From Alphaproteobacteria bacterium (GTDB lineage Bacteria; Pseudomonadota; Alphaproteobacteria; Micavibrionales; UBA2020): a stretch of 64,000 bases of DNA. Position 1 is the first letter of the stretch. Every line of letters starts with the position of its first letter. This document shows positions 25,501 to 53,881 of the stretch, one piece after another. Under the pieces are notes generated by a model that was not told the DNA's origin, did no database searches, and saw only the letters and a list, made by a program, of their open reading frames with translations. The translations under genes and the position numbers were made by a program. The stretch spans positions 7,966-71,965 of the forward strand of contig JBGGMV010000066.1 of NCBI GenBank assembly GCA_041287865.1, in the 5' to 3' direction.

Positions 25501-25631
25501 GGGCCCCTTCAGCAAGTTCCCGATTTTCTCCTTTATCTCCCGGAGCCGCATCCGGATTTTTTGCGCGGCGATGAAAAACATTCCCATACTTTAATGGTGA
25601 CGCATTTTTTTGAAGCTGTGCGAAGAGTTTT

Positions 25632-25668
25632 TGAAACGCTGTGAAACGGTTTGAAACGCTCTGAAACG
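25632..25668 (+). repeat. Phased direct repeats, block 1: 4 x TGAAACG at exact 10-bp spacing
   Basis: TGAAACG occurs at 25632, 25642, 25652 and 25662. The block ends ...TGAAACGCATAAGCGCG. Confidence 0.9.
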
Positions 25669-25757
25669 CATAAGCGCGAATGCAGAAATTTCCCAGCCGC
25701 ATAGGCCATTTTATATGTGCGTGTTTCAGGCGCCTTAAAGTGGGGTATCCGCTGACA

Positions 25758-25784
25758 TGAAACGCTCTGAAACGCTTTGAAACG
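25758..25784 (+). repeat. Phased direct repeats, block 2: 3 x TGAAACG at exact 10-bp spacing
   Basis: TGAAACG occurs at 25758, 25768 and 25778. The block ends ...TGAAACGGATAAGGCGG, parallel to block 1. An inverted copy (GTTTCA) lies at 25733-25738 and a near copy (CTGAAAAC) at 25803. Confidence 0.9.
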
Positions 25785-25957
25785 GATAAGGCGGAGACTC
25801 GCCTGAAAACAGTCACTTGCCGATCATCCGATAACAGGCAGGGCGTTCACATACCCTGAATTGTTCAATGTTTTCATTTGTATAAATAGTTTTTGGCGAA
25901 TTAAGCCAAGCTTAAACTTTTTTCCCTAATATAGCATCAGCAGCAAAAGGATTTCCC

Positions 25958-26740
25958 ATGGCCGGTGACAGCGACAAAACGAAACTTTTTCAGGCGGTTG
26001 CCTCCTATACGCTGGGCAAGGGAATCAAGCGTGACATGCTCCTTACCGATTACCGCGCAGTCGTGAGCGAGCTTGCGACCGGCAGCCGTGCGCCATTCTT
26101 CATGGGCGATATCGCTGATTACATGAACGAACATCCCGACCCCGATCCGGATTCCGACGCGGACAAACCGCTGCAGGCGCTTCAGGGCCTGCATGTTGAC
26201 AAGTTCCGTGTCAGCATCGTCATGGCTGAAGACGGCGGAAAGCGCGTATTCCTGCCGGTTTGTGAAGACATGCACAACGGGCGGCTGCTGGTGGTGGGAC
26301 CGGGCGGCGGAAACTATGGCGGCGCGCCGGTGGAAAAACTCGTTTATGTCGACGGAAGTTCCTCGACCGCCGTAGAGGCGATTAACAGTTTCATTGACAA
26401 AGGCATCCTCGAGCGCGGGGCTGTTGGCATCAAGCCGGCCAGCGCCCACAAAATCAATCAACACTTGGTACAGGCGATCAGTCTCGTTGCCGATTTATCG
26501 AGCCTCACCGAAGAGATCAACATGGCGCCCAAGGGCCAGTCGCCCGAGATGGTGCCTATGCTGTCAGGCACGACGCTGGGAAAATGTTTCCAGGCGGTCG
26601 CTGCCGGGCAAGCGGATGTGGACACCTGCATCATCGCGCGGCCCCACTTCAATCCCGAAGAGGCGGACGCCCAGGTGATGCAGGGCGTCACGTCAGACAT
26701 CAAGGTCGGCAAGCCTTTCAGTTTCAAGCCGAAGGCATGA
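25958..26740 (+). CDS. Hypothetical protein, paralog pair member P1
   Basis: 260 aa. It is similar to the next ORF (LFQAVASY/RFKAVATY; FRVSIVMAEDGGKRVFLPVCED/FKITIVQAEHNDKPVFLPVVED; LLVVGPG/VLVVAPG). The C-terminus is IKVGKPFSFKPKA. Confidence 0.7.
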   Translation: MAGDSDKTKLFQAVASYTLGKGIKRDMLLTDYRAVVSELATGSRAPFFMGDIADYMNEHPDPDPDSDADKPLQALQGLHVDKFRVSIVMAEDGGKRVFLPVCEDMHNGRLLVVGPGGGNYGGAPVEKLVYVDGSSSTAVEAINSFIDKGILERGAVGIKPASAHKINQHLVQAISLVADLSSLTEEINMAPKGQSPEMVPMLSGTTLGKCFQAVAAGQADVDTCIIARPHFNPEEADAQVMQGVTSDIKVGKPFSFKPKA

Positions 26741-26750
26741 GGAGATAAAC

Positions 26751-27461
26751 ATGGCAAACGAAACAGATATCAAAAGGCGATTCAAGGCGGTCGCGACTTA
26801 CGACACGGCCGAGCGGGTGGAAACCTTGCAGCTTGCGCCCGCGGGCAATGTGATCGCGGCGCTGGATTTTTACCGGCAGGATCTTTTCCTCACCGGCATC
26901 GACAAGGCGATAGGCACCCAGGCCACCGACCTGCCTAAAGGCGCGCTGGATATCCTGACGGGTCGCCATGTCAACGGCTTCAAAATCACCATTGTGCAGG
27001 CGGAGCATAACGACAAGCCGGTTTTCCTGCCCGTCGTCGAAGACTCCCTGCTGCAGGAAGTCCTTGTCGTGGCCCCCGGACCGCGCCCTGACAGTTGCGG
27101 CCCTGCTGTTGTCTATGTCGACAGCACCGACACCGACGCCTCTGCGCAGGTCAACGATTTCCTCATCCGCGGCGCGCGGCTGCGCGGCGAGCGCAGTTTG
27201 CTCGACCCTGAGGGCGCCAGGAATCTCATCGATGACATGATCACTGCTGTTTCAATGGTAGGCGACCTTCCGGAAACGCGGGCGATGGAAAATAACATCA
27301 CGATCGGCGCAGCCTTCGCGGAAGTCGCGCGCGGCAATTCCGGGATGGTCAACTACGTGATGGCCTGCAACCTTATCGACTACAAGGCCGAGGCGACCGA
27401 AGGAACGCAAAAGCCCATCGCCGTGCGCGGGCCGCTGTCCTTCAAGGGCAGGGTGGTATAG
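26751..27461 (+). CDS. Hypothetical protein, paralog pair member P2
   Basis: 236 aa, 10 nt after P1, with a GGAG RBS. The C-terminus is IAVRGPLSFKGRVV. Confidence 0.7.
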   Translation: MANETDIKRRFKAVATYDTAERVETLQLAPAGNVIAALDFYRQDLFLTGIDKAIGTQATDLPKGALDILTGRHVNGFKITIVQAEHNDKPVFLPVVEDSLLQEVLVVAPGPRPDSCGPAVVYVDSTDTDASAQVNDFLIRGARLRGERSLLDPEGARNLIDDMITAVSMVGDLPETRAMENNITIGAAFAEVARGNSGMVNYVMACNLIDYKAEATEGTQKPIAVRGPLSFKGRVV

Positions 27462-32105: not shown

Positions 32106-32174
32106 TATTGCGCCAAAACTGGCAAAGCCCCTGAAACTACTGGTTTTTTAATCTTTTTCCGCTATATTGAAGAT

Positions 32175-32536
32175 GTCCGGAGCAATCCGGACTATGACGA
32201 TAAACGCGCTATAAAATAGGCGAGACGGACCTGGGGGCGGTACCCAGCGGCTCCACCATTCTTCAAAAGGATTTGCGAAAGTTGTCTTCGCATCCGGTAT
32301 GGGGCCGAAATAGGATCGACGTGCGTAGTAAAGATGGTTGCTTTCGTCCGGCATTGTTCCGCCGTTATCGGGCTACTTTTATAAATGCTAACGACAACAT
32401 GCCCGCAAGGGCTGAACTCCGCCTCGTTGCTTAACAGCGACAACAGCGAAGTTGGCATTCAATTCCTAAGCTAGCAATAGCATAGGTGGGGCGTGGGGGC
32501 AGGCCTAGCAACAGAACTGCCCCCATTTTCTTTTTT
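32175..32536 (+). ncRNA. ssrA: Two-piece (circularly permuted) tmRNA; the 5' boundary is approximate
   Basis: The acceptor piece ends ...CTGGGGGCGGTACCCAGCGGCTCCACCA at 32258. The coding piece starts GGGGCCGAAATAGGATCGACG at 32301. GGGGCCG pairs with CGGCTCC, including the G3:U wobble. The tag ORF at 32387-32434 encodes ANDNMPARAELRLVA*. It ends in a hairpin at 32495-32524 plus a U-tract. Confidence 0.8.
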
Positions 32537-32563
32537 CAGTCCTTCCGAACGAGTTTTCATTTC

Positions 32564-33367
32564 ATGAGCACCCCCCAGAAACCAGCCGTAAAAATGCCGG
32601 TTCTGGTCAGGATTATTTTCTGGAAGGTTCACTCGCGGCAGATGGCCCTGACATGGGTACGGGTTCTCGGGGCCCTTGGCCTCGTCTGCGCTTTTTTCAG
32701 TTTGATGTCGCCCCTCAACGTTTATTTGTGGGTGCCTGCTATCTACTCTTTTGCCGCTGGGGCCCTGTGCTGGTGGTTATTGAAGTGGTTTGACAGGAAC
32801 GGCGTCTGGCCCTCTGCAACGCCGTCCAAAGGCCTGATAGCGGCGGTCTGGTGCATCCCGGCGCTGGCCGCGCTGGTGCTGGCGACTCTTGAGTTCTTTA
32901 TCGGGATCCATCACTTCTCGCACAACGGCATGTATCCCGGCCTGCCGGCAAAGAGCGTGATTTTTACCAATAAACGCGCCTATGCGGCGCCGTCAGACGT
33001 CAAGCGGGGGGATATCGTTTACTTTACCCTCGAAACAGAGGAAGAAACATTCAAGTTTATCTTGCGCGTCATCGGCCTTCCGGGCGAAACGGTGAAGAAT
33101 GCCGGCGAGGCGCTTTCCATCAACGGGCAGCCTGTCAAACGGAAACTGCTCCGCAAGGCTGACGATACAACAATCTTCCGCGAAAGCATTGGCGAGGCCT
33201 CCTATGAGGTGGCCTTCGATAAGACCCCGCCCCGCAAGCCACTCGATGTGACAATTACCGTGCCGGCTGACGCGTTCTTCGTCATGGCTGATAACCGTCT
33301 TAGCGCTTTTGACAGCCGGTGGTTTGGGACAGTTCCGTTCAGTGCAATCATCGGCAAGAAGTTTTGA
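32564..33367 (+). CDS. Signal peptidase I (S26) homolog with N-terminal multi-TM region, apparently lacking the catalytic Ser and Lys
   Basis: It retains S26 boxes (RGDIVYF, LRVIGLPGE, FVMADNRLSAFDSRWFG). The SM-PTL box reads NGMYPGL and the K of the (I)KR-GLPGD box reads L. I placed the start at ATG 32564 because track ORF 32486 overlaps the tmRNA terminator. Confidence 0.75.
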   Translation: MSTPQKPAVKMPVLVRIIFWKVHSRQMALTWVRVLGALGLVCAFFSLMSPLNVYLWVPAIYSFAAGALCWWLLKWFDRNGVWPSATPSKGLIAAVWCIPALAALVLATLEFFIGIHHFSHNGMYPGLPAKSVIFTNKRAYAAPSDVKRGDIVYFTLETEEETFKFILRVIGLPGETVKNAGEALSINGQPVKRKLLRKADDTTIFRESIGEASYEVAFDKTPPRKPLDVTITVPADAFFVMADNRLSAFDSRWFGTVPFSAIIGKKF

Positions 33368-33404: not shown

Positions 33405-34445
33405 TCATTTTTTGGGCGTCAGCTTCAGCGGCTTTGAAACCTTCGCCGCCGTGTCCAGCGCCATGCGGAAATCGAGGTCGCCGTCCTTGTCGCAGAGCAG
33501 CCATGTCTGCCAGCCGCCGCTGCGGGCGTCTTTCGGCCTGACTTCCAAAGCGCCGTCGCTTTCCTTGCGCGTCACGAAATCGCCGGGGTGAACGACCTGG
33601 TAGATCGAGCCCGCGCCGGTGCCGAAGGTGTCGGCCGCCTGCCAGGCGCGGAAAGGGGTGGAGAGGGTATAGACGATATTTTTATCGCCCTCGGTCTCGA
33701 CGCGGGAAACGACGGTGCCGGAGCGGGGGCAGACCGCCCCTTGCGCGTATTCGGCGGCGGGCGATACATGCGAAAAGCTGATATCGGGCATGCGGCGGGG
33801 GTCGAGCGCATCGGCGGTTGTCATTTTATCGAGCATGCCCCTGCGGTCTTCCCAGACCACCAGCACCTGCCCTTCGGTGGCGACACCCTCGTGGTAGGAA
33901 GGTTTTCCTTCGTCGAAGCCCTGCCGCAGCGTATAGGCCTGCCCCGCCTTCAGCGGCACGACAAGGTAGCGGCTTTCGTCGCGGTAGTAGGAACAGTCGG
34001 AGAAATCGATGTCCATGAGCGGCATCAGGCGGGTCTCCGGCCTGCCCGGATAGTCGAGCGGCACCTGCTTGCTTTTGTCGGCGATCTGGTCGGGCACGAA
34101 GACCTGCCCGTCGGGAAAGGCGAAGGTCCACAGGCGCGGGAGGGCCTTGGTGACTTCCGTGGGCCTGTCGCCGCCGATGCCCGCATCGCGCAGCGCGCCG
34201 AACATCATCATGTCATGCGTCGACATCGTGACGCGGGGAAATTCGGAGAAACCGGGGTCGGTCTTTTTCATGCGCTTGACGAGGCTGGCCTCGAACAGCG
34301 CCAGCTGCTCGGGCGTGATCGCTGCGCCGTCGTGCTCGGCGGGCAGACGCTTCGCCCACCAGGCGGCCAGCGCCTGCAGGGCCGTGTCGGGCCACCAGCC
34401 CGATTTCGGCGCGGCCCTGCTGTTGAAAGCGTCGTTGCTGCTCAT
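33405..34445 (-). CDS. Hypothetical protein, tandem paralog Q1 (last of 4)
   Basis: 346 aa. It shares blocks with Q2-Q4 (ALAAWWAKRLP; IDFSDCSYYRDESRYLVVPLKAGQ; GQVLVV; PGDFVT). The C-terminus is KVSKPLKLTPKK. Confidence 0.75.
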   Translation of the reverse strand: MSSNDAFNSRAAPKSGWWPDTALQALAAWWAKRLPAEHDGAAITPEQLALFEASLVKRMKKTDPGFSEFPRVTMSTHDMMMFGALRDAGIGGDRPTEVTKALPRLWTFAFPDGQVFVPDQIADKSKQVPLDYPGRPETRLMPLMDIDFSDCSYYRDESRYLVVPLKAGQAYTLRQGFDEGKPSYHEGVATEGQVLVVWEDRRGMLDKMTTADALDPRRMPDISFSHVSPAAEYAQGAVCPRSGTVVSRVETEGDKNIVYTLSTPFRAWQAADTFGTGAGSIYQVVHPGDFVTRKESDGALEVRPKDARSGGWQTWLLCDKDGDLDFRMALDTAAKVSKPLKLTPKK

Positions 34446-35518
34446 GCGGGCGTTTTACCGGGAGTTAATTTCAAGGGCTTGCCGGCGGTGATCGGCTTGT
34501 CCAGCGCGTTCATCTCCAGCGTCTCGCCCCCGGGCGTGCAGGGGATGAAGCAGCTGAGGCCCCTTTCCATCGCGGCCTTGGGCAAGACGAAGTGCCGGTG
34601 GCCGCGGTCCATCTCCATCCGCGACACGAAGTCGCCGGGGTTGACGGTCTTGTAGTCGATGCTCCAGCCGGTGAGGAAGGTTTGCTTCGCCTCCAGCAGC
34701 TGCAGCGGGTGGGAAACCATGCGGTAGTGGCCCTTGTTGTCCAGTTTTTCCAGCGTGCCGTCGTAACCCTTGCCTTCCTTGTAGCTCGATTTCAGGCAGA
34801 CGGAGGCGGAGGTGACGTTCGGGTGAGACCGCAGGTCGAGCGCATCCGCCGCGGTCAGGCTGTCGTAGCCTTCCGTGCCTGCGGCATGGATGACCAGCAC
34901 GTCGTCTCCCTTTGCCTCCCGCTCCACGTAGGTCAGGGTGCCGTCTTTGGCGCGGCGCGGCAGCTGCACTTTCTGGCCGGCCTCCAGCTCGACAATCATC
35001 ATGCGGCTTTCCTGCCTGAACCAGAGCGCGCCGGTGAAATCGATATCGCCGTATTTGATAAAGGGCGTCGCGGGCTGCCCGCCATAGGCGAGGGGCTGGC
35101 CCGCGGCGAAAAGCTGCCCGTCGGTGTAAAGGCGCGTTTCCACGATGCTGGACTTCATCTCGTCATAGACATCGGGAATGCCCGCCCTTGCGCAGGCGTT
35201 TTTCAGCGGCGTCGAAGGGGCGCGGGTTGCGCCGGGCGGCTGGTTGTCGGCGTTGGTGACGTAAAGGCAGTTCGCAGGCGATTTGCTGGGCGGCACCTGT
35301 TTCAGCTCGTCCACCAGCGCCTCGGTAAAGGCCGCGCGCTGGGCAGGGGTGACGGTCGCGGTGATGATTTCTATCGACATGATGTCTGTTCCCACTCCCG
35401 TCTGGTATTCCTTGGGCAGTCTGTCCGTCCACCAGTTGGCGATCACGCGATACGTTTCTTCGGGCCACTTGAAGGCGTCGCTGGCGGCGTTGAACGCGGG
35501 GGTTTTTGTATCGGTCAT
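34442..35518 (-). CDS. Hypothetical protein, tandem paralog Q2
   Basis: 358 aa. Shared blocks are VIANWWTDRLP, IDFTGALWFRQESRMMIVELEAGQ and PGDFVS. The C-terminus is ITAGKPLKLTPGKTPA. It has a 4-nt ATGA overlap with Q1. Confidence 0.75.
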   Translation of the reverse strand: MTDTKTPAFNAASDAFKWPEETYRVIANWWTDRLPKEYQTGVGTDIMSIEIITATVTPAQRAAFTEALVDELKQVPPSKSPANCLYVTNADNQPPGATRAPSTPLKNACARAGIPDVYDEMKSSIVETRLYTDGQLFAAGQPLAYGGQPATPFIKYGDIDFTGALWFRQESRMMIVELEAGQKVQLPRRAKDGTLTYVEREAKGDDVLVIHAAGTEGYDSLTAADALDLRSHPNVTSASVCLKSSYKEGKGYDGTLEKLDNKGHYRMVSHPLQLLEAKQTFLTGWSIDYKTVNPGDFVSRMEMDRGHRHFVLPKAAMERGLSCFIPCTPGGETLEMNALDKPITAGKPLKLTPGKTPA

Positions 35519-36609
35519 GGGTTTTTGGCTCCGTTCATCTGTATCTGCAATGGCTTGCGGGTGGTGATGGGCTTGTCCAGCACGGTCGGGTCGATGAGTG
35601 TGCCGTCAGGCGTGCAGGGCTGCATGATGCGCCGGCCGTTTTCCGTCCAGCTTTTCGGGATGGCTTCGAACAAGTCGCCTTCTTTGGTCTGCAATTTCGA
35701 GACGAAATCGCCCGGCTGCAAGACGACATAGCCGTCCCGGCTGCGGGTGGCGAAGGCTTCGGTGACTTCCAGCATCTGCAGCGGGCCGGACAGTTTGCGG
35801 AACTGCCCCTTGTCGCCGACTTTTTCCAGCGTGCTGCCGGCGAGCGTGACGCCGTCGGAGAACGTGGCAGCATCCGCGATAAAGCAGTAGGGGATTTCGG
35901 GGTGGAGGTGCAGCCTGAACGCGTCCTCTGTCGTCAGCTTGTTGAAATCGGGGGTGTCGTTCGAGGGGATGACCAGCACCTTTCCCTCGCCCACACGCTC
36001 GGTTTCATAGACCCGCTTGCTGTCTTTCTCCCGCGCCAGCCTGCAGGTCTGGACCTTCTGCCCCGCATCGAGCGGTGCGACCAGGCAGCGGGTTTCCCGC
36101 CTGAACCAGCGGCAGCCGGTGAAATCGAGATCCTTCAGTTGCGTAAAGGTTGTGGCGGGCTGCGCCGCGTGCTCGATGCGGCCGTCGAGGTTGAAGATCT
36201 GCCCGTCGGCGTACAGCTGTGTCCACATGGTTTCAAGGCTGAAGAACGCGTCGAAGATGCCGGCTTTTTCAAGCGCGGCCTCCAGCGGCGCCGAATCCGC
36301 CCTGCCGCCGGGCGCATCGTGCGCGATGCAGTTGCTGTTGCTGACATAGATGAATTCGTTGCCGTAGCGGCCGGTGCGCAGGGGAACGGTTTTCAGCTCC
36401 TGCACAAAGGCGTCCTTGAAGGCGGCGAGATGCGCGGCGGTGACCTCGACCTTGACGGCTTTCTGGCCGACATCGTCGTCGCGGTCGTCGACAATGGTGA
36501 AGCTGGAGGGCAGCCGCCCTGCCCAGAATTCCGCCAGCGCGCGGGCGCTGGCGTCGCTCCACTGGGGCGGTCCGGCGTCGCTGGCGGCGTTGAAGGCGGC
36601 GGTTTTCAT
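35515..36609 (-). CDS. Hypothetical protein, tandem paralog Q3
   Basis: 364 aa. Shared blocks are ALAEFWAGRLP, LDFTGCRWFRRETRCLVAPLDAGQ and PGDFVS. The C-terminus is ITTRKPLQIQMNGAKNP. It has a 4-nt overlap with Q2. Confidence 0.75.
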   Translation of the reverse strand: MKTAAFNAASDAGPPQWSDASARALAEFWAGRLPSSFTIVDDRDDDVGQKAVKVEVTAAHLAAFKDAFVQELKTVPLRTGRYGNEFIYVSNSNCIAHDAPGGRADSAPLEAALEKAGIFDAFFSLETMWTQLYADGQIFNLDGRIEHAAQPATTFTQLKDLDFTGCRWFRRETRCLVAPLDAGQKVQTCRLAREKDSKRVYETERVGEGKVLVIPSNDTPDFNKLTTEDAFRLHLHPEIPYCFIADAATFSDGVTLAGSTLEKVGDKGQFRKLSGPLQMLEVTEAFATRSRDGYVVLQPGDFVSKLQTKEGDLFEAIPKSWTENGRRIMQPCTPDGTLIDPTVLDKPITTRKPLQIQMNGAKNP

Positions 36610-37715
36610 GCGGGCTGCCCCGGACGGTTGATTTTAAGGGGCTTCAGCGCGGTGATATCCTCGCCGGTCGTGGTGGGGTCGATCAAATTGCCTTTGTCGT
36701 CGGAGGCCAGCCAGCGGCGGGCGCCTTCCTTCAGCCATTCTTTTTTCACGACTTCGTGCCGCGCCTGTCCGTTCTCGACCGTGCAGGTCAGGAAGTCGCC
36801 GGGGGAGACGATCTGGTAACTGCGCCCGTCGCCGACGAAGAAAGGCGCCACCGCCGCCTTGGCGCGGAACGGCTTGCCGAGCGAGCGGTAATGGCCGGCG
36901 TCGCCGACCTTCTCGAACTTCTGGCCGAACTTGCCTTCGGGATTGGTGTAATCCGATTTCGGGTCGGTCATCGCGAAGGTGATATCGGGGTTCTTGCTCT
37001 GGTCGAAAAGATGCCGGCCGACGACGATATCGTCGAAATTCTTCGCGCCGGATTCAAAGATCACCAGCACCTGGCCTTCCTTGTCGACCGTTTCCTCGCG
37101 GTATTCCATCTTGCCCCAGCGCATCATGCCGGTGACGATCTTCTGCCCGACGGGAATATCGACCAGCAGGTAGCGGCTTTCGTCGCGGTACCAGTTGCAG
37201 CCCTTGAAATCGAGCTCGGCCGCGCCGGCCTGCGGGATTTTCGGGCGGTCGGGATGGTCGATGACCTTGCCCTCGGCGAAGGCCTGCCCGTCCTCGAACA
37301 GCGTGGTCGATGTTTTCCACGGCAGGGTGATCATGCCGTCGCCGATTCCCGCCGCCTTGAGCGCATTGGCCAGCGCCTCGCAGGGGTGGTAGTCGGTATT
37401 CAGCTTGATGCATTGCTGCTGCACATAGGTGCCACGTTCGCGCGGCGCCTGTTTCATTTCGCCGATCAGGGCTTCGACGAAGGCGTCATACTGCTCCTGC
37501 GTCACCTGAATTTTCAGCCGGTGTTTTTCCTTCATCGCCGTCACCTGCGCCACTTGGGCGCTGCCGCCGATATTGTCGAGTTCCTGTTTCGGAATGCCCA
37601 GCTGCTTCGCGCCCGGCAGGTGGTCGGCCCACCAGGTGGCGAGCGCACGGTAGCTGCCGTCGCTCCACTTCACGGGCGTGCTTTCCTCGTTGAATTGCTG
37701 GATTATTTCAGCCAT
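36606..37715 (-). CDS. Hypothetical protein, tandem paralog Q4 (first of 4)
   Basis: 369 aa. Shared blocks are ALATWWADHLP, LDFKGCNWYRDESRYLLVDIPVGQ and PGDFLT. The C-terminus is ITALKPLKINRPGQPA. It has a 4-nt overlap with Q3. Confidence 0.75.
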   Translation of the reverse strand: MAEIIQQFNEESTPVKWSDGSYRALATWWADHLPGAKQLGIPKQELDNIGGSAQVAQVTAMKEKHRLKIQVTQEQYDAFVEALIGEMKQAPRERGTYVQQQCIKLNTDYHPCEALANALKAAGIGDGMITLPWKTSTTLFEDGQAFAEGKVIDHPDRPKIPQAGAAELDFKGCNWYRDESRYLLVDIPVGQKIVTGMMRWGKMEYREETVDKEGQVLVIFESGAKNFDDIVVGRHLFDQSKNPDITFAMTDPKSDYTNPEGKFGQKFEKVGDAGHYRSLGKPFRAKAAVAPFFVGDGRSYQIVSPGDFLTCTVENGQARHEVVKKEWLKEGARRWLASDDKGNLIDPTTTGEDITALKPLKINRPGQPA

Positions 37716-37803
37716 TCGTTCCCCTTAAAAACTGCCCTCATTATAGTATCTTATGGTTAATATGGAGTTATCTCCCCGAAGCCCTTGTTTCCAGAGGATT
37801 TTA

Positions 37804-44043: not shown

Positions 44044-46002
44044 GTGGTTGGGTTTACCAAAATGGCTGAAGATGCTACCGCAAAAGCAGGCGCTGCCAAG
44101 CCAGCGCAACCGAAACCGTCGGGTGGTCTGTCGATGAACCCGTCGCCTGAGGATCTGCTTGTGCCGCCCTCACCCCCCGCACCCTCGGCGGCTCTGCCTG
44201 TGTCGACGGGCGCCGCGATCACCATTTCCGGCGGCGCCAACGCGCCCGCCATGCCCGGCGCGGCAGGCCCCGGCACAGCCCCCGGCGGCGGCAAACGTAT
44301 CGGCGACCGCCTGCTGGAACGCGGCCTCATCACCGAAGACCAGCTCAAGGTCGCCCTGCACGAAAAGAAAACATCTTCAAAGCTGATCGGCGAGATCCTT
44401 GTCGACCTCGGCTTCATTTCCTCGACCGCGCTGTCCGAATTCCTGTCTGAATCCACGGGCCTGCAGCAGTTCGACCCCAAGAAAACGATGCTCGACCCCG
44501 AAGCGCTCGAGATGATCCCGAAGAAGGAAGCGCAGAAGTACCAGATCCTGCCCGTCTCCGTCGACAAGGCCGCGAACCGCGCCGTCATCGCCATGGTCGA
44601 CCCCTACGACGTGGTGGCGCTCGACAAGCTGAAGCAGCTGCTGCCCAAATCCTGCATGATCGTGCCGCAGATCTGCCCGCCCGCGACGCTGGCGGACGCG
44701 ATCCACAAGGCTTACGGCGTCTCCACCTCGATCGACGCGATTTTGAAGGAGCTTGCGGGCGACGCTTCGGCCGCGAAAAAGAACCTCGATACGCTGTCGG
44801 AGGCTGAATCTTATAGTCACCCGCTCGTGCGCCTTGTCAACGCGCTGATCTTCGAAGCCGTGAAAATGGGCGCGTCCGACTTGCACTTCGAGCCCGAAGA
44901 AAACTTCATCCGCCTGCGCTGGCGCATCGACGGCGACCTGATCACCTCGCACACGCTGCACAAGGAATACTGGAGCGGCATCTGCCAGCGCCTGAAGATC
45001 ATGGCCGAGCTGAACATCGCCGACAAATATTCGCCGCAGGACGGCCGCTTCAACCTGAACATGGGCGCGAGGGAAGCCGACTTCCGCGTCTCCTGCCTGC
45101 CGACCGTGCATGGCGAGAACATCGTGCTGCGCGTGCTCGACAAATCGGCGTCCATCGTGCCGCTGACCAAGCTCGGCTTCTCCGAACACAACCTGCGCAT
45201 CATCAAGAAGGCGCAGTCCCGCCCCGAAGGCATCATCATCGTCACGGGCCCCACCGGCTCAGGGAAAACAACGACGCTCTACTCGATGCTGAACGACGTG
45301 AACACGCCCGACGTGAACATCCAGACGCTGGAAGACCCGGTCGAATATAACCTGGGCATGATCAGGCAGTCGCACGTGAAAGAGGGCGGCGGTTTCACCT
45401 TCGGCGAGGGCGTGAAAGCGCTCCTGCGCCAGGACCCTGACATCATCTTCATCGGCGAGGTCCGCGACCTCGTGACCGGCGAGCAGGCGCTGAAAGCCGC
45501 CATGACCGGCCACCAGGTCTATACCTCGCTCCACACCAACGACTGCTTCGGCGCCGTGCCGCGCCTGGTCGACATGGGCCTGAAGCCCGGCATGATTTCG
45601 GGCGCGATTATCGCAACCTTTGCGCAGCGACTTGTCAGAAAGCTTTGCCAGAAGTGCAAGAAACCTGCGGCGGCCACGCCCGAAGAATGCAAGATGCTGA
45701 GGGACGGCCCCGACGGCAAGGCAATCGACCCTGCCAACCCGCCCACGATCTACCATCCCGGCGGCTGCCCGGATTGCAATAATACCGGCTTCAAGGGCCG
45801 TATCGCCTGCGTCGAGATCCTTTACTTCGACGACGATATGGACGCGCTGGTGGCGCAGGGCGCGCACAAGGCCGAAATGAAGAAAGTGGCGCTCACCAAG
45901 GGCTTCAAGAGCATGCTCGACGACGGCATCGTCAAGATCTACGAAGGCACGACCAGCCTTGATCAGGCCAGCAAGTCCCTGAACTTCGCCGACCGCCTCT
46001 AG
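44044..46002 (+). CDS. pilB: Type IV pilus assembly ATPase, PilB/GspE family, with MshEN/T2SSE_N-type N-domain
   Basis: Carries Walker A (GPTGSGKTTTLYS), Asp/His boxes and a C-terminal tetracysteine (CQKC...CPDC). The N-domain reads RIGDRLLERGLITEDQLKVAL / LIGEILVDLGFISSTAL. It has an Ala/Pro-rich leader of about 75 aa. GTG start, 11 nt after GGAGGA. Confidence 0.9.
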   Translation: MVGFTKMAEDATAKAGAAKPAQPKPSGGLSMNPSPEDLLVPPSPPAPSAALPVSTGAAITISGGANAPAMPGAAGPGTAPGGGKRIGDRLLERGLITEDQLKVALHEKKTSSKLIGEILVDLGFISSTALSEFLSESTGLQQFDPKKTMLDPEALEMIPKKEAQKYQILPVSVDKAANRAVIAMVDPYDVVALDKLKQLLPKSCMIVPQICPPATLADAIHKAYGVSTSIDAILKELAGDASAAKKNLDTLSEAESYSHPLVRLVNALIFEAVKMGASDLHFEPEENFIRLRWRIDGDLITSHTLHKEYWSGICQRLKIMAELNIADKYSPQDGRFNLNMGAREADFRVSCLPTVHGENIVLRVLDKSASIVPLTKLGFSEHNLRIIKKAQSRPEGIIIVTGPTGSGKTTTLYSMLNDVNTPDVNIQTLEDPVEYNLGMIRQSHVKEGGGFTFGEGVKALLRQDPDIIFIGEVRDLVTGEQALKAAMTGHQVYTSLHTNDCFGAVPRLVDMGLKPGMISGAIIATFAQRLVRKLCQKCKKPAAATPEECKMLRDGPDGKAIDPANPPTIYHPGGCPDCNNTGFKGRIACVEILYFDDDMDALVAQGAHKAEMKKVALTKGFKSMLDDGIVKIYEGTTSLDQASKSLNFADRL

Positions 46003-46124
46003 GCCAGCACCCCGCACGCCGTGACTCTGTATATTCCCGCCCTATATCTATTCCGGGGGCGAATATATTTCGTCGTGAGACCCGAATACAAGTGCTTGGT
46101 TTACCTTCATAATTGGTGTAACAC

Positions 46125-46142
46125 TATAAGGTGTGTTTTGGG
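46125..46142 (+). promoter_or_regulatory. Cluster cis-motif copy (TATAAGGTGTGTTTTGGG), upstream of pilC
   Basis: The 12-mer TATAAGGTGTGT is identical to 53882-53893. It lies 36 nt before the pilC ATG. Confidence 0.55.
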
Positions 46143-46177
46143 TCGTATGACACTACAGGGGGCGTTCGTCTTTAATC

Positions 46178-47392
46178 ATGCCTAAGTTCAGTTACAGGGC
46201 TATCAATCCGAAGGGCCGGCCGGTGCGGGGCGTTGTGAACGCCGCCAACGAGACGGATTTGTTCAATCGCTTGCAAGAAACGGGCATGAACCTGCTCGAC
46301 TGCAAGGAGATGAGCGAAAAATCCAACAAGCTGGCGGCCCTGACCGCCAAGAAGGTCAAGGTCCGCGACCTGATCCAGATGTTCGTCCACCTCGAACAGC
46401 TGCAGAAGGCCGGGGTTCCCTTGCTGGATTCAATTACCGACGTGCGCGACACCGCTGAATCGACCCGCCTGCGCGACATCATGAGCGATATTTACGCCGA
46501 AGTGACGGCGGGCTCCTCGTTCTCCAACGCGCTGGCCAAGCACCCCGGCACCTTCCCCGCCATCTTCATCTCGCTCATCAACGCGGGCGAGGAAACGGGT
46601 AACCTCACCAACTCGTTCGTGCAGGTCATCAAGCACCTGAAGTGGACGGACGCGATGGACACCAAGGTGAAAAAGGCGACGCGCTATCCCAAGGTTCTCT
46701 GCGTGGTCGTCGTCGGCGTTATTTACGTGATGCTGGGCCACGTCGTGCCCGAGGTCGTCGGATTCCTGCGCAACATCGGGCAGGAACTGCCGCCGATCAC
46801 GCAGGCGCTGATCTCCACCTCCGACTTCGTGGTGGGCTATTTCGGCTATATCATCGGCGTGATCATCCTCATCATGGTCATCCTGCGCGTCGGGCGCCTG
46901 ATGTCGGAGGATTTCAAGTACCGCACCGACTACATCGCGCTGCGCATGCCGGTGATGGGCAACCTGATCCGCAAAATCTCGCTCTCGCGCTTCTGCCAGA
47001 CCTTCGGCGTCCTCTTCACCTCGGGTCTCGAGATCCTGAAATGCCTCGAGGCCGCGAAGCAGACCTCGGGCAACCTCGTCATCACCGAGGCGCTGGAATC
47101 GGTCAAGACGCAGGTGCAGGAAGGCTCGGGCCTTTCCCATGCGCTCAACTCCTCGGGCGAATTCCCGTCGCTGGTCGTGCGCATGGTCAAGATCGGCGAG
47201 GAATCGGGTAACCTGACGGGCGTTCTGGAACAGGTGTCGGAATTCTACGACAAGGACGTCAACGAAGCCGTCGACGCGATGATCCAGATGATCGAACCCG
47301 CGCTGACCGTCGTGCTCGGCGGCATGCTGCTGTGGATCGCGGCCGCCGTCTTCGGCCCCGTTTACGACAGCTTCGGCAAGATGGGCGGATAA
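46178..47392 (+). CDS. pilC: Type IV pilus platform protein, PilC/GspF family
   Basis: 404 aa with two GspF repeats and 3 TM helices, including the (ESGNL) motif. Confidence 0.9.
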   Translation: MPKFSYRAINPKGRPVRGVVNAANETDLFNRLQETGMNLLDCKEMSEKSNKLAALTAKKVKVRDLIQMFVHLEQLQKAGVPLLDSITDVRDTAESTRLRDIMSDIYAEVTAGSSFSNALAKHPGTFPAIFISLINAGEETGNLTNSFVQVIKHLKWTDAMDTKVKKATRYPKVLCVVVVGVIYVMLGHVVPEVVGFLRNIGQELPPITQALISTSDFVVGYFGYIIGVIILIMVILRVGRLMSEDFKYRTDYIALRMPVMGNLIRKISLSRFCQTFGVLFTSGLEILKCLEAAKQTSGNLVITEALESVKTQVQEGSGLSHALNSSGEFPSLVVRMVKIGEESGNLTGVLEQVSEFYDKDVNEAVDAMIQMIEPALTVVLGGMLLWIAAAVFGPVYDSFGKMGG

Positions 47393-47395
47393 CGC

Positions 47396-49033
47396 ATGGT
47401 TGCGCTGGGCGGCGGCAAAAGGGTTCTTCTGGTCGGCGGCGAGGGCGTTGTGCTTTACGCGCCGCACGGCCGCGGCATGGAGCGCGAAACATCCATCTCG
47501 TGGGAAGTGCCCAACTTCGACCAGCAGCTGGCCGAGGCGCTTTCCGCCAAGAACCAGAGCAAGTCTGTCGTGGTGCTTTTCGACGGCACCGACCAGACCT
47601 ACCGCCGCGAGGAACTGGCCGCGAAACTTTCCATCATCGACCGCCCGAAATTCGTGAAGCGGAAACTCGAACTCGCCTTCCCGAGCTACCCGATCCGCGC
47701 CTCGCTTGAAATCAAGCCGCCCAAGAAAAAAGGCCGGCAGCCCAAGGGCGCCAAGACCGAGCTGCCCTCGTTCCTTTTCGTGGCGCTGCCCGAAACCGAG
47801 CAGCTCGACCGCATCGGCAACGCGATGTACGAGGCGGGCGTGCCCGTCGCGGGCTTCGGCCTGCTGCCGCTTGAATCGATGGGTCTCGTCAACGAGATGT
47901 CCGACAAGGTTTTTGGCGGCCGCGGCAAGAAATCGCGCTGGGCGGTGCTGGTCGGCCAGCATGAAACCGGCGGCCTGCGTCAGGTTGTGATTAAAGACGG
48001 CAACCTGGCGCTGACGCGCCTTACCCCGACGTCGGAAGCCGGCACCAGCGGCACGGGCTGGGTGGAAGAAGTCACGCGCGAATTGAAGGCAACGCTCACC
48101 TATATCTCGCGCTTCGGCTACAGCAACGACGACGGTCTCGACATCGTGGTCGTCTGCGGCGACGTGGAAAAACAGTTTTTCGACACCCGCGCCATCCCGG
48201 TCACCAATTTCCAGTGCGTCAACGTGTCGGAAGCGATGCGCCATATCGGCCTGCGTTCCTTCGGCATGGAGAAAAGCAATTTCGCCGACGCGCTGCACGC
48301 CGCCTGGGCGTCGCGCAAGACCGGGCTCAAGCTCGCGGTCAAGGTTCCCTCCATCCAGCGCATCATGGCGCCGCGCCTTGCCGCGCGCGTCGGCTCGGTG
48401 CTGCTCGCGCTCTCCATCCTCGGCCTGATGGGCTTCACCGCGCAGGGCTTCCAGGAATACCGCTCGCTCGAGGAAGAAATCGCCGGCAAGCAGAACCGCA
48501 AGACGATGCTCGACCGCGAATACGAGCAGGAGGCGAAGATCTTCGACACGCTGGCGGTCAAGCCCGATGTCGTCAAGGCCGCGCTGTCGGTCAAGAAACT
48601 GCTGGAAACCAACAGCGTCGACCTGCGCCCGATCCTGCATTCGCTGAAAAACACGCTGCCATCTGACGTTAGAATCGAGAACCTGAATATCGAGCACAAC
48701 GCCTCCAGCCACCTCAAGGTCGCCGATGCCTCCAGCGGCGCCGGGCTGTTCGGCGTGCCGGAAGAAGTCACCGACCCCGGCAAGGTGCGCATCAACCTTT
48801 CCTATTCGCTGCCGGACAACCTGATCCTCGAGCAGAAAGTGCTGCGCTCGGAAGACCTCCTGAAGAAACTGAAAACGGCCTTCCCGGGCTTCGAGGTCTC
48901 GCTGAAGAAGCAATTCGGCGGCGTGGAACGCACCGGCTCGGCCGTGGACACACTGGGTAGCCCTGCGCCGACTCCCGGCGGCGGCATGCTGGACCTGGCT
49001 GAAATCGAACTCAGGGGAGCGCCCCTCAAATGA
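47396..49033 (+). CDS. Pilus assembly protein, PilM-like cytoplasmic domain fused to a TM helix and PilN-like periplasmic domain
   Basis: 545 aa. The first ~330 aa look cytoplasmic, followed by one TM helix (VGSVLLALSILGLMGFTAQGF), a coiled coil and a periplasmic domain. It is positioned after pilC and before a PilO-like gene. Confidence 0.65.
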   Translation: MVALGGGKRVLLVGGEGVVLYAPHGRGMERETSISWEVPNFDQQLAEALSAKNQSKSVVVLFDGTDQTYRREELAAKLSIIDRPKFVKRKLELAFPSYPIRASLEIKPPKKKGRQPKGAKTELPSFLFVALPETEQLDRIGNAMYEAGVPVAGFGLLPLESMGLVNEMSDKVFGGRGKKSRWAVLVGQHETGGLRQVVIKDGNLALTRLTPTSEAGTSGTGWVEEVTRELKATLTYISRFGYSNDDGLDIVVVCGDVEKQFFDTRAIPVTNFQCVNVSEAMRHIGLRSFGMEKSNFADALHAAWASRKTGLKLAVKVPSIQRIMAPRLAARVGSVLLALSILGLMGFTAQGFQEYRSLEEEIAGKQNRKTMLDREYEQEAKIFDTLAVKPDVVKAALSVKKLLETNSVDLRPILHSLKNTLPSDVRIENLNIEHNASSHLKVADASSGAGLFGVPEEVTDPGKVRINLSYSLPDNLILEQKVLRSEDLLKKLKTAFPGFEVSLKKQFGGVERTGSAVDTLGSPAPTPGGGMLDLAEIELRGAPLK

Positions 49034-49683
49034 AACTGATCGGCCTTAAACGCGCCATCATCCTTGCCGTGCTGTTCGCCATCAACCTGGCGATCGCGGC
49101 GGTCTATTTCCTGCAGGTCATGCCGATGGCCGAGGAATCGGCGCGCAACCTCGACAACATCAACAGCCAGATCTCCGCGACCAGCCAGAAAATATCCTCG
49201 ATCAAGGCGGATCTTGAAACCTTCAAGACCACGCTGCCGCAGTTCCGCGAGCTGGAGGCCAAGGGCTTCACGCTGCCGCAGGACCGTTTCCGCATGAGCC
49301 GCGACCTCGACGCCGTGCGCCTGAAGGCCGAGCTCGGTGGCTTCAAGTTCACCATCAACGACATCCGGAAGGTCGACAACCCCGACATCGACCCGACGAC
49401 GATGCAGCTGATCTACCGCCGCATCAAGGTCGACAACGTCGAATCGCTGCTCGACACCAACTTCTTCACCTTCATCGACGCGATGCAGCGCGACTTCCCG
49501 ACGCATACCCGCTTCCAGTCGATGCAGATGCGGCGCAAGGACCCGCTGAACGGCGCCGCGCTGGCCAAGATCCAGAAAAAGGAACGCGTCGACCTGATCA
49601 CGGCCGAAGCGCAGTTCGACTGGCTGACGATCATTCCGAAGGCAACCGAAGAATCGGGCACCGGCCCGACGGGAGGCCTGTAA
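49030..49683 (+). CDS. PilO-like pilus assembly protein
   Basis: 217 aa with an N-terminal TM helix (AIILAVLFAINLAIAAVYFL), a coiled coil and a C-terminal domain. It has a 4-nt overlap with the upstream gene. Confidence 0.6.
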   Translation: MKLIGLKRAIILAVLFAINLAIAAVYFLQVMPMAEESARNLDNINSQISATSQKISSIKADLETFKTTLPQFRELEAKGFTLPQDRFRMSRDLDAVRLKAELGGFKFTINDIRKVDNPDIDPTTMQLIYRRIKVDNVESLLDTNFFTFIDAMQRDFPTHTRFQSMQMRRKDPLNGAALAKIQKKERVDLITAEAQFDWLTIIPKATEESGTGPTGGL

Positions 49684-49684
49684 G

Positions 49685-50443
49685 ATGAAGGCCGCCGCCC
49701 CGAAGCCGACCGCCACGAAATACGGCTGGATCATCGCCGCCGCCTGCCTTGCCGTGCTGGGCCTGTCGCCCGTGGCGCGCGCGCAGCTGGGCGATGTCGG
49801 CATTGCTTCCGGCGCCGCCGGCATGATGAACAACAACCCGATTGCGCAGGGCGCGCAGCAGACGCAGGCTGCCGCGGCGCTTGCCGCCGGCCAGCCCGCT
49901 GCCGCAGTTGCGCCCGGCACGCCGCCGGCTGCGGCTGCTCCGGCAGGAGCGCCTGCTGCCGCAGCGCCCGCAGGGGCACCCGTCGCCGCAGCAGCGCCGG
50001 CAACAGCCGCTGCCGCGATGTCCGTGCCGGCGCCCGAGGCACCGGCGGTCACCGACCTGAAATCGCCTTTCGTGCAGTCGCTTTTCTTCTCGCCGCAGGA
50101 CATCATTGCGATCAAGAAAGCTTCCGAAACGCGCGGACCGATCGACACCACAGGCGGTGTGCAGACGCAGACGCCCGTGATCCCGATGAACCGCTACATT
50201 GCCGTTTCCGGCATCAGCTATAAATCGCCCGACAACTGGGTGGTCTGGATCAACGGCCGCAAGGTCGTCAAGGGCGGCGAAGGCGTGCTGAAGGAACTGG
50301 TCGAGATCAAGCCGCAGAAAGATTACGTCGACCTGCTCTGGTTCGATATCGGCCTCAACGGCACGATCAAGATCAAGATGCGCCCCAACCAGACCTATTA
50401 TATAGTGCCGGGCCTGCTCCTGCCGGGGGTTGCACACGAATGA
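49685..50443 (+). CDS. PilP-like / unknown periplasmic pilus component with Ala/Pro-rich linker
   Basis: 252 aa with a signal/TM segment (WIIAAACLAVLGLSPVARA), a long A/P-rich region and a small C-terminal beta-rich domain. Confidence 0.55.
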   Translation: MKAAAPKPTATKYGWIIAAACLAVLGLSPVARAQLGDVGIASGAAGMMNNNPIAQGAQQTQAAAALAAGQPAAAVAPGTPPAAAAPAGAPAAAAPAGAPVAAAAPATAAAAMSVPAPEAPAVTDLKSPFVQSLFFSPQDIIAIKKASETRGPIDTTGGVQTQTPVIPMNRYIAVSGISYKSPDNWVVWINGRKVVKGGEGVLKELVEIKPQKDYVDLLWFDIGLNGTIKIKMRPNQTYYIVPGLLLPGVAHE

Positions 50444-51210
50444 CGGCACTCGCCCAGACCATGCCCGATCCCGCCATTCCGGCGGTGAGCATCAAGCAGG
50501 TATCCGCCGGCTACAAGCACGGCATGGTGATCGAGGACATCGATTTCGAGGTCAGGCAGGGCGAAACCTTCGGCCTGATCGGGCTGAACGGCGTCGGCAA
50601 GACGACGCTCATCAAGATCATGCTGGGCCTGATGGAGGCCAAGAAGGGTTCGGTCGAGATTTTCGGCGGCAAGTCGCTGGACGCCGCCACCAAGAAAAAA
50701 ATCGCCTACCTGCCCGAAAAATTCGAGCCGCCGCCGTTCCTGTCGGCGCTCGAATTCGTCAAATTCTCGCTCGACCTCTACAAGCAGCCTTTCTCGGAAG
50801 AAGCGGTGATGAAAGCCGCTGACCGTGTGTCGCTGACGCGCGCCGCGGTCAAGCGCCGCGTGTCGACCTATTCGAAAGGCATGCGCCAGAAGACGGGGCT
50901 GATCGGCACCTGGCTGACCGGCTGCCCGCTGCTGATACTGGACGAGCCGATGAGCGGCCTCGATCCTCTCGCCCGCGTGCTGGTGAAGGACGAGATCGCC
51001 GCCTGCCGCAAGGCCGGCATGACCGTTTTTTTATCGTCGCACATCCTCGCCGACATGGACGAAATTTGCGACCGCATCGCCGTCATCCACGACGGCCGCC
51101 TGCGCTTCACCGGCACGCCTGCCGAGCTGAAGGCGCAGACGAAGCAGGAATACCTCGAGCGGGCATTCCTGAAAACAATCGAAGGTTCAACAAGGGTCTA
51201 TGAATCATGA
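50440..51210 (+). CDS. ABC transporter ATP-binding protein embedded in the pilus operon
   Basis: Has Walker A (GLNGVGKTT), the signature YSKGMRQ and Walker B (LLILDEPMSGLD). It has 4-nt overlaps with both neighbouring genes. Confidence 0.88.
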   Translation: MTALAQTMPDPAIPAVSIKQVSAGYKHGMVIEDIDFEVRQGETFGLIGLNGVGKTTLIKIMLGLMEAKKGSVEIFGGKSLDAATKKKIAYLPEKFEPPPFLSALEFVKFSLDLYKQPFSEEAVMKAADRVSLTRAAVKRRVSTYSKGMRQKTGLIGTWLTGCPLLILDEPMSGLDPLARVLVKDEIAACRKAGMTVFLSSHILADMDEICDRIAVIHDGRLRFTGTPAELKAQTKQEYLERAFLKTIEGSTRVYES

Positions 51211-52955: not shown

Positions 52956-52959
52956 GCCC

Positions 52960-53772
52960 ATGGAGAGCGGGGCCGAAGGACTGCCGGCGATTTTCTCCAT
53001 CATCAGCGTCATCCTGCTGGGCCTCTGCCTTGGCAGTTTCGCCAGCGCGATGTCGTGGCGCCTGCCACGCGGCATTTCATTCGTCACCGAAAGATCCCAA
53101 TGCCCCTCGTGCCGCGCCACGCTCGGCGTCGTTGACCTTGTGCCGGTTTTTTCGTGGCTTTTCCTGGGGGGCAAATGCCGCCGCTGCAAGGCGCCGATCG
53201 GCTGGCGCTATCCGCTGATCGAGCTGTCGACGCTGCTGCTCTGCCTTCTCTTCCTCTGGCGCTTTCATTTTTCGCCGGCGTTGTTTCCGCTGCTGCTGCT
53301 GGCGCCGGTGATCGTCAGCATCATCGACATCGACCTGCACCACAAAATCATTCCCGACGGGCTGAACGCCTCGGTCGCACTTTTCGGCTTCATGGCGCTG
53401 GCGCTGGCCGCCGTCGATTCGGGCAACCCGCCGGCCTATCTCAGCGACAAGGGGCTCATAGCTTTGGCGGGCGCGCTGCTCTATGGGCTGGGTTCGCTTG
53501 CTTTACGATACGGGATGATGCTGGCGCTGAAGAAAGATCCGCTCGGTCTGGGCGATGTTAAGTTCTTTGCGGCGGCGGGCTTCTGGTTCGGCCTCAGCCC
53601 CGATGCGCTGGCCGCTTTTATGCTGATTTCGGGCCTGATGGCGGTCTTTTTGGCGCTTCTGTGGCGCAAGGTGAAAAAGGAACTGGAGTTCCCCTTCGGC
53701 CCCGCGCTGGTGCTGGCGTTCCTGCTTGTCCTGCTGGTACACCCGCCTGAATTCCTGACAGTATATTTTTAA
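52960..53772 (+). CDS. pilD: Prepilin peptidase / N-methyltransferase (A24 family)
   Basis: Has CPSC...CRRC zinc-type cysteines and catalytic Asp contexts (IIDIDLHHKIIPD, GLGDVKF). Confidence 0.9.
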   Translation: MESGAEGLPAIFSIISVILLGLCLGSFASAMSWRLPRGISFVTERSQCPSCRATLGVVDLVPVFSWLFLGGKCRRCKAPIGWRYPLIELSTLLLCLLFLWRFHFSPALFPLLLLAPVIVSIIDIDLHHKIIPDGLNASVALFGFMALALAAVDSGNPPAYLSDKGLIALAGALLYGLGSLALRYGMMLALKKDPLGLGDVKFFAAAGFWFGLSPDALAAFMLISGLMAVFLALLWRKVKKELEFPFGPALVLAFLLVLLVHPPEFLTVYF

Positions 53773-53820
53773 ATATGTAAACGCAGATTTACCGTTTTTT
53801 CAATCAAAATAGGCTATCTT

Positions 53821-53837: not shown

Positions 53838-53881
53838 AGTACAGGCGTTCATTTAAAAACCGTTACGCCCCTGACAGAGAT

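Follow-up and report, generated by a model that had tools for sequence, protein, structure and literature searches.

What do two adjacent alphaproteobacterial genes, here called P1 and P2, encode, and are their products kin to those of the nearby gene array Q1–Q4? The genes lie in a stretch of 64,000 nucleotides (nt) of contig JBGGMV010000066.1 (GenBank assembly GCA_041287865.1, Alphaproteobacteria bacterium, Micavibrionales), hereafter the window, in which the Q array occupies 33405-37715 on the reverse strand and encodes proteins of 346, 358, 364 and 369 amino acids (aa). The original prediction, made from the letters of this DNA, suggested that P may be a shorter relative of Q. We find that the globular P domain is unrelated to Q by every available test, that both families end in the same kind of basic tail, and that P belongs to a rare protein family whose genes sit behind a predicted CtrA-type promoter and, in the window and its closest relatives, within a sharply bounded hypervariable cassette.

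P1 (25958-26740, forward strand; 260 aa, with its TGA stop ending at 26740) and P2 (26751-27461, forward strand; 236 aa) each comprise a P domain and a C-terminal tail, and both open reading frames (ORFs) were confirmed as originally drawn. So was the 10-nt gap between them, 'ggagataaac', in which a GGAG ribosome-binding site (26741-26744, forward strand) precedes the ATG of P2; that of P1, read from the sequence, is AAGGA (25947-25951, forward strand), 6 nt ahead of the start codon. P1 is identical in sequence to the deposited hypothetical protein ACAH80_09495, from a metagenome-assembled genome (MAG) labelled Alphaproteobacteria bacterium. The two proteins share 29% identity over 258 columns (BLASTP E = 1e-23), and their alignment contains every block listed at the outset (F.AVA.Y; F..(S/T)IV.AE...K.VFLPV.ED....LVV.PG; VYVD; and the C-terminal block). 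The proposed tandem paralogy is thus real and well beyond chance: P1 and P2 are co-oriented, diverged paralogues 10 nt apart. Their N-termini are polar (MAGDSDKTKLF... and MANETDIKRRF...; grand average of hydropathy about -0.1) and, judged by eye, hold neither a signal peptide nor a transmembrane segment, which places the proteins outside the Sec/Tat and membrane classes; the bodies of both P and Q are acidic (pI 4.9-5.9). The GC content of the P genes, overall and at third codon positions, matches that of neighbouring genes, ruling out a recent foreign transfer.

An exhaustive search of 1.84 billion protein representatives with a profile hidden Markov model (HMM) recovered 47 P-family proteins (clusters) at E ≤ 1e-3. 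Searches with a k-mer prefilter returned only self-matches, for P1 as for Q2, and with the 45-sequence alignment, in which ankyrin words dominated, only P0040 and P1; no relatives of P2 or Q occur in the viral contigs scanned. The P domain, about 200 aa long, is a rare uncharacterised α/β family in uncultured Alphaproteobacteria; where the sources carry an organism name, it is alphaproteobacterial. Assignment to a known family was tried, and none was found: P1 and P2 have no match in Pfam, NCBIfam, PHROGs or PADLOC, and the family profile has none at E ≤ 10 among PDB sequences. A Pfam scan of 45 members yielded no consistent family and none matching the P domain itself, the sole matches at E < 0.01 being the ankyrin repeats of one fusion protein. 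A match of P1 to ATP-grasp_5 (E = 0.16) was dismissed as noise, as the other members lack it.

The AlphaFold2 model of P1 is confident (predicted local distance difference test, pLDDT, 83.4; predicted template modelling score 0.79) and describes a single α/β domain. A β-strand (residues 11-16) and three helices (32-40, 52-55 and 67-76) lead into a three-stranded meander (83-92/95-104/109-114) and a further strand (128-132), which are followed by helices at 138-155, 163-177, 181-187 and 207-215, a strand at 224-229 and a final helix. Foldseek comparison of this model with the PDB and BFVD gave best E-values of 0.38 and 0.33, respectively, with template modelling (TM) scores of at most 0.18, and hence no fold match; this negative covers those two collections and leaves the cellular predicted structures of AlphaFold DB outside its scope, which is the main caveat on novelty. 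With that scope for the fold, the P domain is new at the level of both protein family and fold. D104 is its only invariant residue, with Y130, F145 and R153 close to invariance; the family has no invariant His or Cys. The conserved E103-D104, Y130, N143 and R153 are positioned at strand ends and on the following helix.

P domains occur free-standing (about 215-260 aa), as a class extended at the N-terminus (about 300 aa), and in fusions. One homologue (P0040) joins the domain to ankyrin repeats, and long homologues of about 865-900 aa consist of an NTPase with Walker A (GDAAFGKS) and Walker B (LFLDEF) motifs followed by a C-terminal P domain. The gene for this fusion is the middle one of a three-gene operon in two unrelated contigs, L002 and a JGI contig of sample 3300050046, in which a protein of about 1,000-1,100 aa, the NTPase-P protein of about 890 aa and a protein of about 105 aa follow one another; in L002 (1422-7788) the large protein ends in a VWA domain (PF13519, 8e-7). 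The NTPase part has only a weak match to AAA_16 (E = 0.016), and no class can be assigned to it beyond its Walker motifs. The window holds no homologue of this NTPase and no VWA gene. The 300-aa class follows the Obg-L27-L21 genes (on the opposite strand) and precedes a PAS histidine kinase of about 641 aa and a single-domain response regulator of 124-125 aa in two genomes (L006 10001-13347; L133 1435-4748). Neither this kinase nor this regulator could be matched to DivJ, PleC, DivK or another specific equivalog.

Ahead of P1, the upstream gene mrp stops at 25500, and a terminator-like hairpin (25540-25555, forward strand) comes after it, its sequence conserved in the related contigs L003 and L004; because of this hairpin, the leader of about 400 nt is taken to belong to the P operon. 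The separate leader and repeat array that had been described for the pair are real. A distal array of four TGAAACGS copies with a 10-bp period, ending in ATAAG (25632-25669, forward strand), forms a candidate operator, and a proximal array of three copies with the same period and ending (25758-25785, forward strand) starts 126 bp after the distal array and is kept in L001, L003 and L004. The arrays lie about 120-270 nt upstream of the CtrA-type box described below and are invariant across four genomes; they belong to the Micavibrio-like subclade only, and are absent upstream of more distant P homologues. They are arranged like an operator for a protein of the winged-helix or response-regulator type. 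A metagenome scan for three phased GAAACGS repeats returned at least 120 loci, all of them unrelated matches, with none encoding a relative of P, Q or the acidic protein that neighbours P.

Downstream of the arrays stands a CtrA-type box, TTAAGCCAAGCTTAA (TTAA-N7-TTAA; 25901-25915, forward strand), 57 nt before the ATG of P1 and the only TTAA-N7-TTAA on either strand of the window. A -10-like hexamer, TAATAT (25927-25932, forward strand), preceded by a conserved TTTTCC(C/T), begins 11 nt after the box, which therefore overlaps the -35 position. TTAA(N7)TTAA is the full CtrA site and TTAACCAT its ungapped variant, and activating sites lie near -35 (PMC6180460); a full site directly upstream of the -10 element and overlapping -35 is also the arrangement of CtrA-activated promoters in Caulobacter and Rhodobacter (PMC6180460). 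The P promoter thus has the sequence by which CtrA-regulon members are recognised (TTAA-N7-TTAA or TTAACCAT near -35). The Q array begins behind a near-full CtrA-type site, ATAA-N7-TTAACCAT (37771-37753), followed after 7 nt by TATAAT (37745-37740; promoter 37740-37771, reverse strand); this motif, which holds the ungapped variant, is kept upstream of the Q genes in L001. The resemblance to known CtrA promoters has its limits: the P family is no known member of the regulon (flagellar, pilus, ccrM or gene transfer agent genes), binding of CtrA is here predicted from sequence, and the P subclade adds the two 10-bp GAAACGC repeat arrays upstream.

The same architecture of box, about 11 nt and 'tttcc-taatat' is present in the syntenic L001, L003 and L004, and a box lies 57-92 nt before the P gene or its operon in every distinct P-family locus with readable upstream DNA (11/11). 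Among 16 full boxes in the 184 kb inspected, 13 sit at this distance from a P-family gene or operon, which corresponds to the eleven distinct loci plus two duplicate contigs of one locus (L008 and L009 duplicate L007). The box also precedes P homologues of less than 50% identity in other contexts (L005, L006, L133, L130, L132, L007 and L002), among them a position between YkuD and CBS genes in L005 and one upstream of the VWA-NTPase operon in L002. The -10 block deviates in L006 and L133 and is missing from the AT-rich leader of L002, and a second TTAA-N7-TTAA box follows the response regulator gene in both L006 (13746) and L133 (5035). From these promoters we infer, strongly for P and reasonably for Q, that both families are under CtrA control.

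Comparison of syntenic genomes shows that the P genes themselves are the variable part of an otherwise stable region. The order hflK, mrp, leader, P, a convergent acidic protein of 332 aa, DHFR and thyA recurs, whole or in part as contigs extend, in L001, L003, L004, L007/L008 and L130, with two P genes in the window and L003 and one in L001, L004, L007 and L130. Proteins encoded by the neighbouring genes are 87-91% identical between the window and L003, whereas the best P pairs reach 31-39% and lack positional orthology. In 100-nt bins, nucleotide identity between the two is 70-87% in the leader, 43-62% over 25972-27418 and 78-92% from 27419 onwards, with flank values put at 85-90% overall, so that the break coincides with the P coding sequences. 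By the Nei-Gojobori method, the flanking genes of the window and L003 show synonymous divergence (dS) of 0.33-0.82, nonsynonymous divergence (dN) of 0.06-0.07 and dN/dS of 0.075-0.22, versus 1.3-1.9, 0.55-0.77 and 0.36-0.52 for P pairs; the closest pair, L003_Pb and L004_P, gives 1.15, 0.26 and 0.225. Because synonymous divergence, too, is far above that of the flanks, these differences point to replacement by ancient alleles or paralogues, and mere accelerated evolution of P orthologues is ruled out. The P coding region is a sharply bounded cassette that holds deeply diverged family members, each under purifying selection.

Is this family, then, a form of Q? The earlier suggestion rested on a resemblance between the '(L/V)LVV.PG' strand of P and the 'G.VLV(V/I)' block of Q1–Q4, and on matching tails. 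Profile-profile alignment with hhalign over that strand gives a probability of 1.15% (E 0.046) when only sequences of the window are used, and 0.2% (E 0.3) once the profiles hold 45 P and 6 Q sequences, which does not support equating the two blocks. A P HMM against Q and a Q HMM against P score at most about 1 bit in hmmsearch, with zero and negative values among them, there are no tblastn cross-matches between P and Q at E ≤ 0.1, and no Q protein is among the 47 recovered by the exhaustive P-profile search. The model of Q2 (pLDDT 79) consists of an N-terminal α/β domain followed by a nearly all-β region of about 12-14 strands; compared as DSSP secondary-structure strings of the predicted models, P and Q differ in fold and in the order of elements, as beyond the meander P runs into long helices and Q into about 12 β-strands. 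In the absence of any significant profile or structural similarity, kinship of the globular parts is rejected: the globular P domain is unrelated to Q by every available test, and nothing supports an ancestral three-stranded meander common to the two. The N-terminal 'W...WW..RLP' domain of Q (Q4, 36606-37715, reverse strand; also Q2 and Q3) matches phrog_8937, a phage family without known function (E = 3.4e-9 for Q4 and 5e-4 for Q2), which P does not match. Q copy number also differs between genomes, with four in the window and two in L001; between these, one orthologous pair is 59% identical and the others 29-40%.

The tails are a different matter, and here the original prediction holds. P1 ends in the motif IKVGKPFSFK (26699-26728, forward strand; residues 248-257, predicted unstructured) and P2 in IAVRGPLSFK (27417-27446, forward strand; residues 223-232), the consensus being h-x-h-x-x-P-L-x-h-K (h, hydrophobic). 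With the tails retained in the P alignment, the best P-Q hhalign alignment is exactly the last 22 residues (E = 0.0023). The regular expression [IVLFA]-x-[VATIMS]-x-x-P-[LF]-x-[LFIYM]-[KTRNQES], applied to the C-terminal 20 residues of the 690 stop-to-stop ORFs that the window and nine loci contain, matches P and Q proteins exclusively (12/12). Since this expression was drawn from both families, an HMM built solely from P-family tails, seven in number, served as a non-circular test: among the C-terminal 40-mers of 3,024 ORFs, it ranks five of the six Q tails immediately behind those of P (E 1.9e-4 to 0.17), and the best background ORF follows at E = 1.2. Both models predict the tails to be disordered, with pLDDT 58-70 for P1 and about 30 for Q2. 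The tails carry a net charge of +3 to +5 over the last 20 residues (+1 in Q4), and the motif lies 3-7 residues from a C-terminus whose final positions show no conservation.

All Q proteins end in this kind of tail. Within the Micavibrio-like subclade it is carried by many, not all, P proteins; the tailed members of the alignment (P1, P2, P0004, P0006, P0012, P0014 and P0015) are all among the closest relatives, and those with readable contigs all lie in the synteny of Mrp, P and the acidic protein. We therefore keep the P domain apart from Q and link its tail to Q, domain kinship being rejected and the tail match confirmed. The tail is a separable short linear motif, added in the lineage that also has Q, and does not itself speak for common descent of the domains.

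Taken together, we favour a reading of P as a CtrA-timed, non-catalytic binding or adaptor module whose tail docks onto a partner shared with Q, to which we assign a probability of roughly 0.55. Phosphorylated CtrA would bind the box over -35 and switch on the P1-P2 operon while the cell cycle is in its CtrA-active phase, which in a Micavibrio-like predator would be the motile attack phase, and the 4 + 3 GAAACGC arrays may supply a second, lineage-specific input. The P domain itself would act as a protein-binding or adaptor module without catalysis, a role favoured by its fusions to ankyrin repeats and an NTPase together with the lack of a catalytic signature. The tail would be a short linear motif coupling P and Q to one trans-acting partner, such as export, localisation or proteolysis machinery. 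The surface recognised by P may be under frequency-dependent or conflict-driven selection, as the replacement-type diversity suggests.

Several observations weigh against this reading. 'Non-catalytic' argues from absence, and the conserved E103-D104, Y130, N143 and R153 could, as placed in the model, form an active or ligand-binding site. The loci with a box are often close relatives, so that independent contexts number about six rather than eleven, and a ctrA gene was not located within the sequence at hand. Three syntenic P proteins are without the tail, namely P0010 (the first L003 copy), the L004 protein and P0011 in L130, where it is degenerate; the tail is therefore not essential to the P domain. 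Finally, only two genomes were seen to carry Q, and in at least one genome whose P bears the tail (L007/L008), Q is missing from the syntenic position.

An unlikely alternative makes P and Q effector-like or prey-interaction proteins that a Micavibrio-like predator exports, the tail being a Sec-independent secretion signal. The acidic bodies without an N-terminal signal peptide, the net positive tails (+3 to +5 in most copies) confined to these two families, and the ankyrin-repeat fusion of one homologue are in keeping with such a role, as are promoters that suggest attack-phase-type control, a nearest named relative from a predatory genus, and a combination of replacement-type hypervariability and copy-number variation typical of conflict genes. 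However, the annotated parts of the window contain no type I, III, IV or VI secretion genes and only a type IV pilus/type II secretion-like cluster, some P proteins have no tail, and the wider family lies among housekeeping genes, beside a histidine kinase and a response regulator, or is fused to a cytoplasmic P-loop NTPase, with dN/dS not exceeding 0.5. We are similarly doubtful of a version in which the tail is a new lineage-specific export or targeting signal of a CtrA-timed, hypervariable, cassette-swapped P/Q repertoire directed by epibiotic Micavibrio-like predators against prey, with the P domain as a variable recognition module of new fold.

The tail could instead be a degron or adaptor-binding motif for cell-cycle-timed proteolysis, which would make P a cytoplasmic cell-cycle or developmental factor; this, too, we consider improbable. 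CtrA-type promoters are found family-wide, the tails are disordered, C-terminal and basic, and in two genomes the 300-aa class neighbours a PAS histidine kinase and a single-domain response regulator. In Caulobacter, many proteins of the CtrA regulon carry degradation signals at their C-termini, and among the C-terminal classes recognised by ClpX is a basic, MuA-like one, which offers a lead and not a test. The motif, however, lies 3-7 residues from the C-terminus and the last residues are not conserved, a housekeeping cell-cycle factor would leave the hypervariable cassette unexplained, and the presence of sspB near Q is ordinary synteny.

That P is a diverged enzyme, for instance an RNase H-like nuclease or a protease-like fold of the Ulp1/CE clan, is very unlikely. 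The weak Foldseek matches fall into two classes that would suit it, one of MutS, RuvC, integrase, Hermes transposase, 3'-5' exonuclease and a terminase RNase H-like domain, the other of Ulp1, SENP, NEDP1, Cdu1 and RavZ, and the invariant D104 has E103, Y130 and R153 close by. Yet all these matches have E ≥ 0.3, TM scores of 0.10-0.18 and root-mean-square deviations of 5-15 Å, and membership of either group calls for both catalytic residues and a significant fold match, which P lacks. A CE protease would need an invariant His and Cys, a DED(D) or DDE site needs more than a single invariant acid, and the RNase H fold requires a helix between strands 3 and 4 that P is without; with D104 alone invariant, P fits neither catalytic set.

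Little is also left of the proposal that P is a truncated, distant homologue of Q, matching its C-terminal part after loss of the N-terminal WW..RLP domain, and we hold it to be scarcely probable. The top globular hhalign alignment does fall on the block originally named (P 83-115 against Q ~168-198), with both segments predicted as a β-hairpin and a strand, the tails are similar, and both families are acidic, multi-copy, without a signal peptide and less than 6 kb apart in two genomes. The alignment probability nevertheless falls as the profiles are enriched, and the HMM scores, the lack of cross-matches and the divergent architectures after the meander, all given above, speak against it. Most improbable is a role of the P and Q arrays as orphan immunity (anti-toxin) or anti-phage defence genes, which their tandem diverged paralogues of variable copy number, acidic cytoplasmic character, hypervariable islands between conserved genes and the location of the Q array beside a transfer-messenger RNA (tmRNA) gene, a common island integration site, might suggest, given that PADLOC has no match and defence membership is accordingly rejected, no toxin or secretion gene lies nearby, the size of the proteins is large for an immunity role, the genes have native codon composition, no relatives occur in viral contigs and a CtrA-type promoter conserved across many contexts would be unexpected for defence cargo.

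Among known systems, MoxR-type AAA+ ATPases with VWA partners use a C-terminal domain to bind a target (the LARA domain of RavA with ViaA; CbbQ with CbbO). Distant P domains likewise end Walker A/B proteins of about 890 aa encoded right after a protein of about 1,000-1,100 aa (with VWA in L002), whereas that NTPase is too diverged for a MoxR assignment and P1 and P2 are free-standing; the pair falls outside the MoxR AAA+/VWA group, NTPase and VWA neighbours occurring only with distant homologues, and the resemblance is only an analogy. With Q1–Q4, P has in common the disordered basic tail, the CtrA-type promoter motif, multiple copies, hypervariability, an acidic body without a signal peptide and, in two genomes, the neighbourhood, in contrast to a different architecture with no detectable globular similarity. 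Loci of replacement-type cassettes, such as polymorphic immunity arrays and surface-antigen loci, show the same sharp breaks at the borders of coding sequences between conserved flanks and behind a conserved promoter, and deeply diverged occupants each under purifying selection; unlike them, the window holds no associated toxin, recombinase, repeat-mediated switching element or silent copy that we could find.

Should the favoured reading of P as a CtrA-timed binding module prove right, the P domain would join the CtrA regulon as a member not described before, with a box wherever checked across uncultured Alphaproteobacteria including Micavibrio relatives, and a fold without counterpart in the PDB or BFVD. 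The combination of one promoter architecture in all eleven loci, cassette replacement between near-identical flanks and a tail shared with a structurally unrelated family makes the locus testable, and it may offer a handle on cell-cycle and attack-phase functions in organisms in which such genes are mostly hypothetical.

Lineage assignment of these loci deserves a remark. The closest named genome with the locus is an 'uncultured Micavibrio sp.' MAG (L004), the one GTDB representative found with the acidic neighbour as anchor; the same anchor gave nothing in JGI metagenomes. The local NCBI taxonomy (taxid 213485) places Micavibrio in Bdellovibrionota, the MAGs that bear the locus are labelled Alphaproteobacteria, and the window holds an alphaproteobacterial tmRNA and CtrA-type boxes.

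Pfam, NCBIfam, PHROGs and PADLOC yielded no match for the convergent neighbour of P2 (27462-28460, reverse strand; 332 aa, with one acidic stretch and a basic tail). This conserved orphan keeps 76-88% identity between genomes and, in at least six contigs, meets the last P gene tail-to-tail. The interval between mrp and P holds further genes in some relatives: a 326-aa Sel1/TPR-like repeat protein with a signal-peptide-like N-terminus in L004 (5658-6638, reverse strand, ahead of the P leader), which is absent from the window, and a 214-221-aa Ala-rich helical protein in L007 (9277-9942) and L130 (2198-2842), both more distant genomes, which has no Pfam match and is not a P paralogue.

Just upstream of the Q array lies an alpha-type permuted tmRNA gene (32136-32527, forward strand; Rfam RF01849, 229.7 bits), the listed 3' end of which is overlapped by a signal-peptidase-I-like ORF (32486-33367; Peptidase_S26, 7.7e-30). 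tmRNA genes are frequent integration sites of genomic islands, and the S26 gene and the Q array may for this reason be island cargo. Farther downstream, a type IV pilus/MSHA-like cluster (44044-58219, forward strand) encodes, along with three ORFs without a Pfam match, an MshE-type ATPase with an MshEN domain (652 aa), a T2SSF platform protein, an ABC ATPase, a TPR protein, a PilT-like ATPase (410 aa) and a secretin (639 aa).

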